A stretch of DNA of 64,000 nt from Gemmatimonadales bacterium (GTDB taxonomy: Bacteria > Gemmatimonadota > Gemmatimonadetes > Gemmatimonadales > GWC2-71-9): positions 3,262-67,261 of the forward strand of contig JBQTHV010000109.1 of the NCBI GenBank assembly GCA_052389555.1, written 5' to 3'. A model generated the notes under the pieces. The model was not told the DNA's origin, did no database searches, and saw only the letters and a program-made list of their open reading frames with translations. Made by a program: the position numbers and the translations under genes. Below, one piece after another: positions 3 to 64,000 of the stretch (the stretch's first letter is position 1; every line of letters starts with the position of its first letter).

Positions 3-1856
3 TTCGGCACCACCTATCCCAAGGTGTACCTCGACGGGATTCAGCTTGCTAACCCGCTGCTGGTGACCTGGCTCCAGCCCGCTACCGTCGAACGGATCGA
101 AGTGATCCGGGGACCCCAGGGAGCCGCGCTCTATGGGGCCGACGCCCTCAGCGGGGTAACCAACATCATCTCCCGCCACGATGCCGGGGCGGAAACCCCG
201 CGCGCCCGGGTGACTGCCGGGTTAGGGTTGGCCGCCACCGACTTCGCCGCGGACCCGGCACTCGAGCAGCGCTACGCGGCCGAGGTCCGCGCCGGCTCGA
301 ACCTGCGCTCGGCCGCGCTGCACCTGGAGTTGGGCAGCACCGGCGAGTATTCCCGCCACACCTATGCGCGCCGGCTCGCCGCCACCGGGGTGGGCCGCTG
401 GGTAGGCGGCAAGAGCATCGTGACCGGCACGGTGCGGTTGTTCGGGATGCGGGCCGCAACCAGCGAGAGCCCCATCATAACCCGCCTGCTGGCATCGTAT
501 CGCGCGGCGGACTCGGTGCCCCTGGCGCTGGCGGTGCCCGTCACCGACACCGCGAGCCTGGTCGAGTTCACCGCCGGCGCTTCGGCCAAGCTGTTCACCG
601 GCGACTATTGGCAGCACACCTTCACGGCCGGGGTCGACGGCTACTCACTGGATGGCGTGCCGGACCACCGCTCTCCGATTCCGTTCGGGGATGTCACGGC
701 GCTGAACGATGCCCGGGGATCAGCCGCCCGCGGAACCCTGCGGCTCAGCACGGTGCGGAAGCTCGGAGCGGACCAGCGCAACACCGCCGACCTCACCTTC
801 TCCCTCGAACAGGCGATCCTCCGCGAGCGAGCTCCGGTGCAGCACCTGAACGCCGGTGGCGACATCGACACCACCGACGTGGTCCGCTGGCGCGGCAATA
901 CCGGCATCACCAGCCAGGTCAACGGGACGCTGGCGGGACAGGTTCATCTCACCGGGGGGATGCGGCTCGAGCGCGACGAGTCGGGCCTGGGCAACGGGCG
1001 ATGGGCCTTCCTGCCGATGCTCGGCGCGGCCTGGAGCCGGGAGCACGATGCGATCACGTTCAAGCTGCGCGGGGCGTACGGGAAAGGGATTCGCTGGCCC
1101 GAGATTCCCGCGCGGGAAACCCTGTGGGAAGGACTGCGTCCTCGTTCGGGGACGTCCACCCTCGAGCCGGAGGAGCAATCCGGCGTCGAGGTAGGGTTCG
1201 ATCTCTACGTGGCGAATCGGTTCACGTTCCAGCTCACCAGATTCGACCAGATAGCGTCCGGCCTGATCCAGCGGGTCGCGATCGCTCGGGATACCGGCAC
1301 GACCCCGGTCGCGGCAGTGGATCGGATCAAGTATGAGCTCCAGAACGTGGGAGAAATCACCAACCGGGGCTGGGAAATCCAGGCATCGTTTCGCCGGTCG
1401 GCCTGGCTCCTGGCCGGCACGTTCACCCAGGTAAACAGCCGGGTGCGCAAGCTGGCGACGGGCTACACCGGCGACGTCCGCCCCGGCGACCGGATGCTCG
1501 AGGTGCCGGAACGCACCGTGGGGCTCACCGCGGGATGGAGCGGCTCGCGCTGGCGCGCCTCGCTCACCGCCTCTCGCGCGATGGACTGGGTGAACTATGA
1601 CCGGGTAGCGCTGGCCAAGGCCTTTGCCACCACCAATCGCCCGACCCGCGAATTCGTGGGCGAGAAGCTCCGCCTGTTCTGGAGAGAGTATCCCGGCATA
1701 ACCCGCCTCCGCGCGAGCGTGGGCGTGACCCTGTTCAACCGCCTCGGCCTCACCTTCTCGGGCGACAACCTGCTCAACCACCAGACCGGCGAGCCCGACA
1801 ACATCACCGTGCTGCCGGGCAGAACCCTCTCATTCGGGGTGCGGACAGAGTTCTGA
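3..1856 (+). CDS. TonB-dependent receptor (5' end outside window)
   Basis: Open frame from window start. Plug motif IERIEVIRGPQGAALYGADALSGV(T)NII, beta-barrel segments, C-terminal Phe (GVRTEF). Confidence 0.9.
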   Translation, partial: FGTTYPKVYLDGIQLANPLLVTWLQPATVERIEVIRGPQGAALYGADALSGVTNIISRHDAGAETPRARVTAGLGLAATDFAADPALEQRYAAEVRAGSNLRSAALHLELGSTGEYSRHTYARRLAATGVGRWVGGKSIVTGTVRLFGMRAATSESPIITRLLASYRAADSVPLALAVPVTDTASLVEFTAGASAKLFTGDYWQHTFTAGVDGYSLDGVPDHRSPIPFGDVTALNDARGSAARGTLRLSTVRKLGADQRNTADLTFSLEQAILRERAPVQHLNAGGDIDTTDVVRWRGNTGITSQVNGTLAGQVHLTGGMRLERDESGLGNGRWAFLPMLGAAWSREHDAITFKLRGAYGKGIRWPEIPARETLWEGLRPRSGTSTLEPEEQSGVEVGFDLYVANRFTFQLTRFDQIASGLIQRVAIARDTGTTPVAAVDRIKYELQNVGEITNRGWEIQASFRRSAWLLAGTFTQVNSRVRKLATGYTGDVRPGDRMLEVPERTVGLTAGWSGSRWRASLTASRAMDWVNYDRVALAKAFATTNRPTREFVGEKLRLFWREYPGITRLRASVGVTLFNRLGLTFSGDNLLNHQTGEPDNITVLPGRTLSFGVRTEF

Positions 1857-1859
1857 GCG

Positions 1860-2678
1860 CTACTCGCTTTCGCGTAACCCGTCCGCCACCAGCGTACACG
1901 CCACTACGACCAGCACCAACGCGATCCCCGGCGCCAACCCCACCCACGGCGCATTCACCACGGTATCCCGTCCCGACGCGATCATGGTGCCCCAGGACGC
2001 GGCGGGCGGCTGAACCCCTAACCCGAGGAACGAGAGGCCTGCCTCCAGGGTGATCGCATTCCCGATGCCGAGGGTCGCCAGCGCGATCACCGGAGCCAGC
2101 GCGTTAGGAAGCGCATGCCGGAGCAGGACCCTGCGCCGGGTGGCGCCCAGGGCGCCGGCCGCTTCCACGTACGGCCGGGCCAGCTGGGATCGGATCTCCG
2201 CGTAGACCAGCCGGGCCACCGGCATCCACCCGGTCACCCCCAGCACGATCACGACCAAACCCGCGCTCGGCTCCCACAGCGCAGCCAACAGCAAGAGCAG
2301 CACCACGCGCGGCAACCCCAGCGCAAAGTCGGTGGCGCCGAGCAGCACGGGGCCGAGCCGGCGCGGACTGGTCGCGGCGAATGCGCCCACCGCGATACCG
2401 ATCACCAGCGACAGCACCATCGCGAGCATCCCCACCAGCAGCGAGACCCGGGCGCCGTAGACCAGGCGGGACCACACGTCCCGTCCCAGGCGATCGGTGC
2501 CCAAGAGATGAAAGACGCCGTGGACATCGCTGGTGAACGGAGCGAGGAACCGGGTTGCCGGCACGTCGCGCTGGACGTCCGGATCGATCGGGGCAACCAC
2601 CGGTGCAGCGAGCGCCGCGATCACGATGACCGTCAACAACACGAGGCCGATCCGGCCGCCCGCGTCAAGCCGCCGCAT
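1860..2678 (-). CDS. Peptide/nickel ABC transporter permease, OppC/DppC type
   Basis: LLGTDRLGRDVWSRLVYGARVSL, EAA loop (YVEAAGALGA), SFLGLGVQPP..SWG. Confidence 0.93.
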   Translation of the reverse strand: MRRLDAGGRIGLVLLTVIVIAALAAPVVAPIDPDVQRDVPATRFLAPFTSDVHGVFHLLGTDRLGRDVWSRLVYGARVSLLVGMLAMVLSLVIGIAVGAFAATSPRRLGPVLLGATDFALGLPRVVLLLLLAALWEPSAGLVVIVLGVTGWMPVARLVYAEIRSQLARPYVEAAGALGATRRRVLLRHALPNALAPVIALATLGIGNAITLEAGLSFLGLGVQPPAASWGTMIASGRDTVVNAPWVGLAPGIALVLVVVACTLVADGLRESE

Positions 2679-62982: not shown

Positions 62983-63049
62983 CCAATCGCCACGTTTCAA
63001 CTTTATACGTTAGAAACCCGAGACGAACCTCTCTCGTAAAGCACCTCGT

Positions 63050-63622
63050 ATGACTTGGCCTACTCCGCATCTCACTGCAGTCGATCTCGACGCGTTTCAT
63101 TCTGCGTCGTTGAGTCGAGAAGCGTCTTTGCACCTCGAGTCCTGCGCAGAATGTCGCGAACTCGTGGAGCGGGACCGCGCCCTCGTTCATGCCCTGGAAA
63201 GTCTTCCGGGTTTCGATCCCGCGGATGGCTTTGCCGGCCGGGTCCTGGCCGGAATTGCCCGACCTGTCCCGGCCGTTGTTCCAATCCGGCGCCGAACCCG
63301 ACTCGCGCTGGCCGCGTCGGTCATGATCGGGCTCGGCGCCAGCATTGGATGGTCCGCCCTGAACTGGGCGACGTTGCGCGGCTGGGCCGATTCGGCTCCT
63401 GGGGAAGTGAGCCGGCTGGTTTGGGATGGAGTGACCAGAGTCGCCCAGAGTATCGCCCAGCAACCTCTGGTTGCCGGGTTGGGCAATCTCGGATTCTCGA
63501 CCGGGCTGCTCGCGCTCTTCGCCGCGTTGCTGCTGGTCGGCTACGTCGGGGCGATGGTGGCGCTGCGCCGCCTGCTCGCGCTGCCCGCTATGGCCCAGCC
63601 TGCGCTCGATGCCGGCCGATAG
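63050..63622 (+). CDS. ZAS-type anti-sigma factor
   Basis: H..HLESCAEC zinc motif followed by transmembrane segments, directly after the ECF sigma gene. Confidence 0.75.
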   Translation: MTWPTPHLTAVDLDAFHSASLSREASLHLESCAECRELVERDRALVHALESLPGFDPADGFAGRVLAGIARPVPAVVPIRRRTRLALAASVMIGLGASIGWSALNWATLRGWADSAPGEVSRLVWDGVTRVAQSIAQQPLVAGLGNLGFSTGLLALFAALLLVGYVGAMVALRRLLALPAMAQPALDAGR

Positions 63623-64000
63623 GCGGGTTAGGATTGCGCTCGCCCTTCTCGGCAGTTCGGGGTTTCTTGCCTCCAGTCCGTTTTCCCGACTCCCGGCACA
63701 GACTCCGAGCCGGATCGAGCTGGATCGGCTGAGTGACCCCGCGGGACTGGAGCGGCAACTTCGGTCGGCGCTTCGGTCCGAGGGGGCGCAGGTCCTGGTG
63801 CCCAACGGGCGGGTCGAGCAGGGGGACTTCCAGCTCGCCCCAGGCGCGACCGTTCCCGGACATCTCCTGGTGTTGAACGGCGACGCCGAGCTCTCGGGCC
63901 AGGTCCAGGGAAATGTGGTAGTGCTCGACGGCGATCTCACCCTCGAGCGCGGGGCGGTTGTGTCGGGCAACGCGCTCGTGCTCGGAGGGCGCATCGTCCA
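63609..64000 (+). CDS. Exported protein with polymer-forming (bactofilin-like) beta-helix repeats, runs off the window
   Basis: Translated by hand: MPADRRVRIALALLG..VLNGDAELSGQVQGNVVVLDGDLTLERGAVVSGNALVLGG. Confidence 0.7.
   Translation, partial: MPADRRVRIALALLGSSGFLASSPFSRLPAQTPSRIELDRLSDPAGLERQLRSALRSEGAQVLVPNGRVEQGDFQLAPGATVPGHLLVLNGDAELSGQVQGNVVVLDGDLTLERGAVVSGNALVLGGRIV

Follow-up and report, generated by a model that had tools for sequence, protein, structure and literature searches.

S-CGGGTTA-K-G, a Hyper-Abundant Genomic Word of a Soil Gemmatimonadales Bacterium, Belongs to a Patchy GTTAGG-Core Dialect Family

The genome of an uncultured Gemmatimonadales soil bacterium carries a short asymmetric DNA word, S-CGGGTTA-K-G, in thousands of dispersed copies. 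The word was noticed in a 64,000-nucleotide stretch of one contig (C109:3262-67261, hereafter the window) of the studied genome, G000, whose assembly comprises 3.215 Mb in 202 contigs at 66.9% GC. The word is genuine, present throughout the genome and actively maintained as a recognition word, and CGGGTTAKG is one dialect of a family of words with a GTTAGG core that is patchy over the order. This dialect family across the Gemmatimonadales is the main new result. Its best reading, offered tentatively, appears to be that of a signal for uptake or transfer which molecular drive has spread. Other G numbers denote relatives in the comparison set; C stands for a contig, L for a sampled locus, g for a genus and f for a family.

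Abundance and Enrichment of the Word

The window contains 70 exact CGGGTTA sites, 40 on the plus and 30 on the minus strand (Table 1), while dinucleotide shuffles of the window give 3.31 ± 1.89 (maximum 9). A preliminary description of the window had counted about 69 (40 and 29), and every coordinate quoted in it is present. Its two further counts proved exact when oriented 10-mers were used, with G at position 9 in 56/70 sites and either CGGGTTAGG or CGGGTTATG in 47/70. The enrichment is not restricted to the window, since CGGGTTA occurs 2,843 times in the 3.215 Mb of the genome, with a strand split of 1,441/1,402. The word ranks first in over-representation at k = 7, 8, 9, and 10, and GCGGGTTAGG is present in 1,092 copies where an order-3 Markov model expects 7.4.

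The word had been proposed to override codon bias. A synonymous-codon shuffle was run within our own crude gene calls, preserving both the protein sequence and the codon usage. The 7-mer is observed 2,314 times against 218 ± 16 in the shuffle (10.6-fold), the 9-mer 1,259 times against 20.8, and the 10-mer 863 times against 9. The excess of the 9- and 10-mers is 60-96 fold, and the proposal holds, a 10-96 fold excess being left after codon preservation. Against a fifth-order Markov model, which had also been suggested as a check, the 7-mer reaches a ratio of only 1.4 and the 9-mer one of only 2.1, but this null is unfair because 6-mers of the word itself make up much of the model. At about one copy per kb, asymmetric, on both strands and independent of frame, the word has the hyper-abundance of the DNA uptake sequences (DUS) and uptake signal sequences (USS).

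Anatomy and Arrangement

The logo in G000 reads S-C-G-G-G-T-T-A-K-G. The base frequencies are 0.70 G and 0.25 C at position -1; 0.61 G, 0.20 T, and 0.11 C at +7; and 0.81 G at +8. No sequence conservation is found beyond these 10 bp, and the flanks outside -1 and +8 have background composition. One-off variants at C1, G2, G4, T5, T6, and A7 occur at or near background counts, and the third base of the word permits T, then C, then A. The triplet preceding GTTAGG is CGG in 1,605 cases, CGT in 254, CGC in 79, and CGA in 22, and the near-match CGTGTTA reaches 417 copies against 91 expected, in agreement with the near-matches remarked on earlier. Such a sharp specificity profile with tolerated second choices is as expected of a protein site.

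The density of the word is 0.88 per kb in called genes and 0.91 per kb elsewhere, and all five reading frames that avoid a TAA stop are occupied. In the frame xCG GGT TAx, in which G would create a TAG stop, T is found in 73% of the sites and C in 11%. TAT is taken over TAC there, contrary to the TAC preference of a GC-rich genome. No clusters of the word are seen in G000 (maximum 4 sites per 400 bp), nor is there an excess of inverted pairs or an alternation of strands. Neighbouring sites show a mild excess of the same strand at short range, opposite-strand pairs being 24/77 of those within 60 bp. The lack of conserved flanks, the use of both strands and of all permitted frames, and the equal coding and non-coding density together argue that the signal is read on double-stranded DNA and not on RNA or protein. 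A dispersed repeat of the repetitive extragenic palindrome (REP) or miniature inverted-repeat transposable element (MITE) type was rejected on the missing flank conservation, the absence of clusters, the equal coding and non-coding density, and orthologous sites that differ without indels.

Distribution and Dialects

Within the genus, 18 other species were surveyed, with a reversed control word present in about 40 copies. CGGGTTAGG occurs 1,607 times in G000, 428 in G018, 412 in G017, 341 in G008, 209 in G005, 112 in G016, 108 in G013, and 27-79 times in the remaining species. In a glmS tree, G000 groups with G017 and G018, and G016 and G005 form a sister clade. From the counts and the tree taken together, the trait is clade-specific and graded. 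G001 has no hyper-abundant word whatever, and elsewhere among 400 genomes of the phylum the G000-dialect 9-mer occurs in 0-15 copies.

GTTAGG and CGTTAGGC were surveyed over the same 400 genomes, for which the 8-mer background is 5-40 copies. CGTTAGGC is the top word of genus g77, a genus that had been weakly conspicuous for the 9-mer, with 97 copies per 110 kb of sampled sequence against 11 expected. CGTTAGGC(R) is hyper-abundant (450-4,500 copies) in at least 12 Gemmatimonadales genera other than that of G000, from three families. In family f2, G240, G297, and G399 of g77 carry 3,479-4,141 copies and G293 of the same genus 66. The other f2 counts are 4,469 in G304 (g80), 1,966 in G323 and 1,100 in G162 (both g72), 815 in G192 and 855 in G292 (both g75), 834 in G348 (g84), 709 in G117 (g65), 465 in G298 (g79), 452 in G127 (g68), 191 in G074 (g59), and 173 in G023 (g5). 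In family f1, six genomes of g39 have 181-1,061 copies and G003 (g1) has 177, and in family f3 G030 (g9) has 345. No comparable enrichment of CGTTAGGC is found outside the Gemmatimonadales in these 400 genomes.

The logo of this sister dialect, C-GTTAGG-C-R, is consistent over nine sampled genomes. A third spelling, CGTSAGGC, is used by G380, which has CGTCAGGC (40 vs 6.6 expected) and CGTGAGGC (28 vs 6.3) instead; the C form is additionally enriched in G030, G192, and G117. Word-rich and word-poor species occur within one genus, as in G240, G297, and G399 versus G293, and G000 versus G001. The idea that every species has a word of its own is false, as G001 and G293 are both without any such hyper-abundant word. 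GTTAGG is not avoided in word-poor genomes, where its counts are about those expected under Markov models, and the high GTTAGG counts of G216 and G350 are explained by their low GC content.

One of the carriers is cultured. G304 is Gemmatirosa kalamazoonensis KBS708, its contig 2 being 100% identical to plasmid NZ_CP007129.1, and CGTTAGGC is as dense on both Gemmatirosa megaplasmids as on the chromosome. A search of population data found the window in only one public run. The preliminary description did not recognise the word as described, which agrees with a literature search that found no description of this word, of CGTTAGGC, or of transformation for the Gemmatimonadota.

Two further occurrences were recorded. 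The 5.3-kb contig G003:C6 has five CGGGTTAGG sites on one strand in a genome with a total of only 27. Either the contig was mis-binned and comes from a G000-like organism, or it was transferred recently. The uncultured Gemmatimonadetes RBC101 is a further word-rich metagenome-assembled genome, whose contig MAG101_6 (L027) contains eight GTTAGGC in 21.8 kb around glmS.

Conservation and Origin of the Sites

Synteny between G000 and G017 or G018 is retained at about 75% nucleotide identity, and conservation in orthologues, which the preliminary description had proposed to examine, was compared site by site. The same word stands at the same place in G000 for 55% of the G017 sites and 62% of the G018 sites. 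As baselines, any 7-mer is conserved in 18% of cases and 7-mers lying 10-60 nt away from these sites in 8-26%, and the identity of the flanks (0.75-0.76) equals the background. The sites are therefore retained about three times as well as their own flanks across ~25% nucleotide divergence. Only 0-4% of the G000 sites are words in low-word genomes, under the 15-18% baseline.

At the G000 sites, low-word relatives have near-cognates with 1-3 mismatches and no gaps. In these, CGGG is mostly already there, and TTA is derived from C or G. The sites arose one by one via point substitution at near-matching sequences. Since several different substitutions converge on one word, it is the final word that is favoured and not one type of mutation. 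The ancestor of the clade had several hundred sites, which have since been actively kept, and the G000 lineage has about tripled them.

Spacing, Density, and Polarity

Spacing was compared with a null in which sites were redrawn among CGGGNNN candidates inside 5-kb bins. Only 117 gaps are 100 bp or shorter (248 ± 13 expected), and only 268 are 200 bp or shorter (474 ± 17 expected, z = -12). Neighbouring sites thus avoid each other below ~300 bp, a deficit that has faded by ~500 bp. The same short-range repulsion, with the same strand symmetry, is found in G240, G297, and G304, which use the sister dialect. An arrangement more even than chance is a further feature of the DUS/USS class. Local density climbs with GC from 1.8 to 7.0 sites per 5 kb, also after normalisation to the CGGG precursors, and the longest stretch of G000 without a word is 10.3 kb. 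Also, in the Gemmatirosa chromosome, positions 2,655,001-2,675,000 (L212; 72.9% GC) have 0 GTTAGGC where ~12 are expected, and this word-free 20-kb stretch may be a recently acquired island.

The orientation of the word relative to the local GC skew in G000 is 56.6:43.4. Control G-rich words have biases of 58% (CGGGTCA), 61% (CGGGCTG), and 68.5% (GGGCAGGG). In Gemmatirosa no replichore polarity is seen in 23 samples of the 5.3-Mb chromosome, with counts by skew sign of 56/57 and 85/94. Because the 56.6% bias equals or falls below that of the control words, there is no polarity of the kind known from Chi or from the FtsK-orienting polar sequences (KOPS). The preliminary description had preferred a lineage-specific, dispersed DNA-level signal of the DUS type to a polar one, and its judgement stands.

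A Candidate Uptake or Transfer Signal

S-CGGGTTA-K-G is the local dialect of GT(B)AGG-core genomic words that are patchy over the Gemmatimonadales. In the reading that we favour tentatively, a single sequence-specific protein would recognise each copy as a double-stranded site, whatever its orientation. Copies arise singly by point substitution at near-matches, and a directional force would then preserve them. Biased DNA transfer would be the likeliest such force, as with the uptake sequences found in Neisseriaceae and Pasteurellaceae. Some component of the type IV pilus/ComEA/ComEC uptake route may prefer word-bearing fragments, and these would replace their homologues by recombination more often. 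Because preferred fragments would recombine in more often, the word would accumulate by molecular drive, with or without selection, until each fragment of a few hundred bases has a word. Even spacing is the outcome expected of uptake-driven drive (PMC7811141). We infer both uptake or transfer as the step at which the word is read and the type of protein that reads it.

The word resembles the DUS of Neisseriaceae (GCCGTCTGAA, receptor ComP), which is a non-palindromic 9-12-bp word found about once per kb, on both strands and in genes (PMC2397512 and PMC3630211). Like the DUS, it is a highly conserved word between average, permissive flanks, its density differs among related species, and it has lineage-specific dialects that share a core (PMC3630211). 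Unlike the DUS, it belongs to a different phylum (FCB group) and a soil habitat, is accompanied by no ComP-family pilin above threshold and by no inverted terminator pairs in G000, and reaches its full density on mobile elements as well as on a phage. The USS of Pasteurellaceae (Hin AAGTGCGGT and Apl ACAAGCGGT) are similar to it in occurring about once per kb, mostly in coding sequence and in several frames (PMC7811141). They are likewise more evenly spaced than chance and comprise at least two types sharing a core, and their accumulation by point mutation fits molecular drive (PMC7811141). In contrast to the USS, the word has no AT-rich flanking segments, and word-rich and word-poor species coexist within one genus.

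Pfam searches of G000 identified a complete set of transformation genes, with ComEC, DprA, ComEA, ComM, PilQ, and PilT and five prepilins; ComF gave only a weak, sub-threshold match. In C182:3850-8799, ComEA, which has two HHH_3 DNA-binding modules, is encoded directly upstream of pilB-pilT-pilC. This two-module form of ComEA is seen in family f1, and the genomes of family f2 match one module only.

Several observations weigh against an uptake signal. When ComEC, DprA, ComEA, ComF, and PilQ were compared between word-rich and word-poor sisters, the competence genes were equally present in the word-poor ones (e.g., G293 and G001). As a result, the patchiness of the word is unexplained by the competence set, which is not a discriminating feature. 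Among five proteins with a prepilin motif, the best score against ComP_DUS (PF16732) was 19.1 bits, obtained by the major pilin, for a cut-off of 27.3. PilA does not track word richness, orthologues of the major pilin being present in word-poor genomes. Neither does ComEA, queried with seven pilin-like proteins as one concatenated sequence, nor do two GspH-type pilins or the minor-pilin cluster PilW/PilV/FimT over the 400 genomes. The co-distributed gene that the preliminary description proposed to look for was not found among methyltransferases, pilins, or competence genes, none of which tracks word richness. Also, G000 has neither Neisseria-like inverted-pair terminators nor USS-like AT-rich flanks, and literature searches found no report of DNA uptake or transformation in the Gemmatimonadota.

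The remaining objection comes from mobile DNA. DUS and USS are reported to be depleted in newly acquired DNA (PMC7811141). In the present genomes, the word thins out from 7.0 to 1.8 sites per 5 kb as GC decreases and there are deserts of 10-20 kb, but an integrative element and a phage contig have full density. The Gemmatirosa contig 4 (L224; 20,952 bp) is a unit of ~15.0 kb recorded about 1.4 times, its open reading frames (ORFs) recurring at an offset of 14,997. This integrative element encodes a tyrosine integrase and a primase, with no capsid or terminase detected, and carries 17 words per 20 kb, at or above the density of its host. A second case is the tailed-phage contig L293 (IMGVR_UViG_3300037261_000237, 1-13890), which has terminase, portal, head, holin, and repressor-like genes. 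It contains 16 CGTTAGGC in 13.9 kb against 0.22 expected, and they lie inside its genes. The uptake reading is not rated higher mainly because the 15-kb element and the phage contig carry the full word density. For the G000 dialect, a search of viral contigs gave 22 matches, about the chance number, and none was clearly word-rich. L224 itself corresponds to the published 21-kb high-copy "possible phage" element.

Alternative Explanations

An intracellular self-marking or architectural site, the main rival, is possible, if somewhat doubtful. It supposes that a sequence-specific reader in the cytoplasm requires one copy of the word at intervals of a few hundred to a few thousand bases. This reader could be a non-polar Chi-like factor controlling nuclease activity or recombination, a defence system sparing DNA that bears the word, or a nucleoid protein. 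Selection would keep the genome, the plasmids, and the resident or infecting elements stocked with the word, and the gene for the reader would be horizontally mobile. The full density on both Gemmatirosa megaplasmids, on the 15-kb integrase/primase element, and in the terminase, portal, and head genes of the phage favours this explanation, as does the patchy distribution with word-rich and word-poor species in one genus. The even spacing and site-specific conservation are also compatible with selection that maintains at least one site in each stretch. However, no candidate reader was found, and stretches of 10-20 kb without a site are tolerated. Nucleoid proteins are not known to impose codon-overriding 10-bp words, and known markers read by translocating nucleases, such as Chi, are polar while the word is not.

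A more specific version of self-marking seems rather unlikely. According to it, the GTTAGG-core words would not be uptake tags; they would be the DNA component of a horizontally mobile "self by sequence" system that is independent of orientation, in which a cytoplasmic reader spares or favours DNA with a word about every kilobase. If this were true, chromosomes, megaplasmids, integrative elements, and even phages would be selected to spell the word, and the reader would have passed, together with its specificity, from genus to genus within the Gemmatimonadales.

Biased repair or gene conversion is improbable. Here, an enzyme acting like very-short-patch repair would convert near-matches towards the word, which itself would be functionless. 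This agrees with neighbours that differ by 1-3 mismatches and with substitutions at several positions that all converge on one word, and such a process would act on every replicon including mobile elements. The transition neighbour of the word, CGGGTCAGG, is itself enriched 2-4 times and not depleted, which is also in favour. On the other hand, independent repair events predict Poisson spacing and not a deficit of neighbours below 300 bp, and no Vsr-type motif was found in G000. Both transitions and transversions at three positions would be required, which no single known repair enzyme provides. The effects generally known for very-short-patch repair (E. coli Vsr/Dcm) are a few fold, compared with 60-100 fold for the word.

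A relation to integrons is very unlikely. In this explanation integron integrases would dock at the words or bind to them. The core site (R') of integron attC and attI has the consensus GTTRRRY (Stokes and Hall), of which the GTTAGGC in the widespread dialect is one of the common forms. G000 has three integron integrases (TIGR02249, 375-440 bits) at C73:2-1711 (-), C92:1623-2597 (+), and C112:84-1154 (-), and the best plasmid-database match to one of them, NZ_CP007129.1:856833-857804 (57.7% identity), lies on a Gemmatirosa megaplasmid. The contigs of these integrases are short (2.7-5.9 kb), and two of the integrases lie within ~100 bp of a contig end. Scans of viral contigs for paired CGTTAGGC also returned mostly cassette-like arrays with inverted GTTAGGC/GCCTAAC partners. 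Unlike attC sites, however, the genomic words are single, have no hairpin partner or cassette array, and lie inside core genes at orthologous positions, where the insertion of cassettes would harm. A crude detector gave only six attC-like candidates in the whole of G000, none of them beside the three intI genes on their short contigs, and none in 35 kb around the Gemmatirosa intI (L382). Moreover, a recombinase cannot write point substitutions, and CGTSAGGC and CGGGTTAKG violate the GTT or the RRRY rule. Many of the IMG/VR loci matched by these scans (L250, L278, L298, L300, L339, and others) have equal numbers of inverted GTTAGGC and GCCTAAC with periods of a few hundred bases, and these contigs look like integron cassette arrays filed as viral.

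A methylation-coupled motif or a restriction-modification target had been among the options of the preliminary description and now has a very small probability. The word is asymmetric and contains an adenine, as do Type IIG/III targets, and G000 has two enzymes that could be considered. The first, an Eco57I/MmeI-like methyltransferase of 1,006 aa (C42:19645-22662), occurs in 30/31 relatives irrespective of their word richness and is lacking in the word-rich G017. The second (C172:59755-61392), a fusion of an N6_N4 DNA methylase with an Mrr-type endonuclease domain, is found in G000 only among the 31 relatives and is probably a recently acquired restriction-modification gene. Neither enzyme tracks the word. 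Gemmatirosa's single-molecule real-time (SMRT) methylome, that of a genome with ~4,500 copies of the sister word, reports only RGATCY, ATGCAC, and CCAGN7TCA (PMC3974934), and therefore largely removes m6A and m4C (N6-methyladenine and N4-methylcytosine) methylation as an explanation. No C5-methylase motif was found in G000. Also, restriction targets are usually avoided rather than enriched. The word is like the cyanobacterial highly iterated palindrome HIP1 (GCGATCGC) in its hyper-abundance, its presence in genes against codon preference, and its patchy lineages; in contrast, HIP1 is palindromic and tied to cognate methyltransferases, and the word is asymmetric and unmethylated in Gemmatirosa. 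As for the Eco57I/MmeI-like enzyme itself, its conservation in 30/31 relatives in the order is unusual for a restriction-type enzyme. Its orthologues have one in-frame TGA in the last 150 residues in most genomes of the same genus, and none in G000, G016, or the other families.

A polar chromosome signal, either Chi (RecBCD/AddAB) or KOPS and the architecture imparting sequences (AIMS) read by FtsK, would suit a G-rich, non-palindromic, octamer-sized word that is the most over-represented of its genome and, as Chi and KOPS are, short and asymmetric, but those signals are strongly polar and enriched a few fold, whereas the word is non-polar in both G000 and Gemmatirosa and its 60-100 fold excess is far beyond any known Chi, so this explanation is rejected as the least probable.

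Sites in the Window

Table 1. Exact CGGGTTA matches in the window. Each 10-mer is given in the orientation of the word; the last column lists relatives with the same word at the orthologous place, or the sequences that relatives have there.
10-mer	Position	Strand	Relatives
GCGGGTTAGC	50..56	-	
CCGGGTTAGG	218..224	+	
GCGGGTTATG	478..484	-	G018
GCGGGTTATG	1699..1705	-	
ACGGGTTACG	1875..1881	-	
TCGGGTTAGG	2019..2025	-	
CCGGGTTAAT	4404..4410	-	
GCGGGTTACG	5374..5380	+	G018
CCGGGTTAGG	5410..5416	+	
GCGGGTTATG	5720..5726	+	G018
GCGGGTTAGG	6678..6684	-	
GCGGGTTAGG	8482..8488	+	
GCGGGTTAGG	8988..8994	-	
CCGGGTTACG	9107..9113	-	
GCGGGTTAGG	10006..10012	+	G018
CCGGGTTATT	10989..10995	-	
GCGGGTTAAG	11417..11423	+	
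GCGGGTTAGG	12337..12343	-	
CCGGGTTAGG	13129..13135	-	
GCGGGTTATG	13319..13325	+	
GCGGGTTAGG	13586..13592	+	
GCGGGTTATG	14683..14689	-	
CCGGGTTAGG	16059..16065	-	relatives have CCGGGTCAGG or CCGGGTGAGG
GCGGGTTATA	18723..18729	-	
GCGGGTTATG	19148..19154	+	
GCGGGTTATG	22121..22127	+	G018
GCGGGTTACC	23152..23158	+	G005
CCGGGTTATG	23173..23179	+	G018, G011
GCGGGTTATG	24910..24916	+	
CCGGGTTAGC	25788..25794	+	
GCGGGTTAGG	26559..26565	-	
CCGGGTTACG	26752..26758	-	G018
GCGGGTTATG	27365..27371	-	G017; six other relatives have CGGGT(G/C)ATG
GCGGGTTACG	27699..27705	-	
TCGGGTTAGG	27908..27914	-	
ACGGGTTACC	28039..28045	+	G001
CCGGGTTAGG	30037..30043	+	G017, G018
GCGGGTTAGG	30302..30308	+	G016
CGGGTTAACCCG (palindrome, two overlapping sites)	30623..30634	both	
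GCGGGTTACC	33189..33195	+	
GCGGGTTAGG (within glmS, antisense)	34513..34519	+	relatives mostly have CGGGTCAG
CCGGGTTATG	36299..36305	+	G017, G018
GCGGGTTAGG	38656..38662	+	
CCGGGTTATA	39036..39042	-	
GCGGGTTAGG	39587..39593	+	
GCGGGTTATG	40022..40028	+	
GCGGGTTAGG	40611..40617	-	
GCGGGTTAGG	43145..43151	-	
CCGGGTTAGG	44540..44546	+	G017, G018
CCGGGTTAAC	45046..45052	+	
CCGGGTTAAG	45068..45074	+	
GCGGGTTATG	45576..45582	+	
GCGGGTTATG	45630..45636	+	G017, G018
GCGGGTTACT	46420..46426	-	
GCGGGTTAGG	47430..47436	+	
GCGGGTTAGG	47718..47724	-	
GCGGGTTATG	51434..51440	-	
GCGGGTTATG	51594..51600	+	
GCGGGTTAGG	51932..51938	+	
GCGGGTTAGG	52847..52853	-	
GCGGGTTAGG	54359..54365	+	G017, G018
TCGGGTTAGG	56896..56902	+	
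CCGGGTTAGC	58421..58427	-	
CCGGGTTAGG	59264..59270	+	G018
GCGGGTTAAG	59557..59563	+	
GCGGGTTACG	59668..59674	+	G017
GCGGGTTAGG	61344..61350	-	
GCGGGTTATG	61720..61726	+	G017, G018
GCGGGTTAGG	63624..63630	+	

The window also contains an ORF at 27039-29312 (-) of 757 aa whose Walker box, GPTGSGKTTT, is of the PilB/GspE secretion-ATPase type, an assignment that rests on the motif. Abundant words that are unrelated to the one described here occur as well. In G000 these are the tandem heptamers (CCAATAG)n / ATTGGCTATTGGCT with ~380 copies and a second family, TCTCACCTCTCA, with ~270 copies; the window has copies as well. Other genomes have unrelated repeat words of their own, (AGAAAGC)n in G293 and words of the AGTCTTGAGTC type in G211.

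Implications

DNA uptake guided by a genome-wide sequence tag has entered the textbooks for two proteobacterial families only (PMC7811141). The reason for such tags is still argued, with selfish drive, "safe sex", and self-recognition as the proposals. The word family described here would be a third, phylogenetically remote case, with at least three dialects, in an abundant and barely studied soil phylum. Word-rich and word-poor sister species within genera are natural contrasts for finding the reader, and the cultured, completely sequenced carrier Gemmatirosa kalamazoonensis KBS708 makes the question testable outside pathogens. Should the word prove not to be an uptake tag, the fact that plasmids, an integrative element, and a phage carry it would point to an undescribed form of sequence-based self-DNA marking. 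Either way, the word offers a handle for the genetics of the Gemmatimonadota and a marker for assigning hosts to the plasmids and phages of soil metagenomes.

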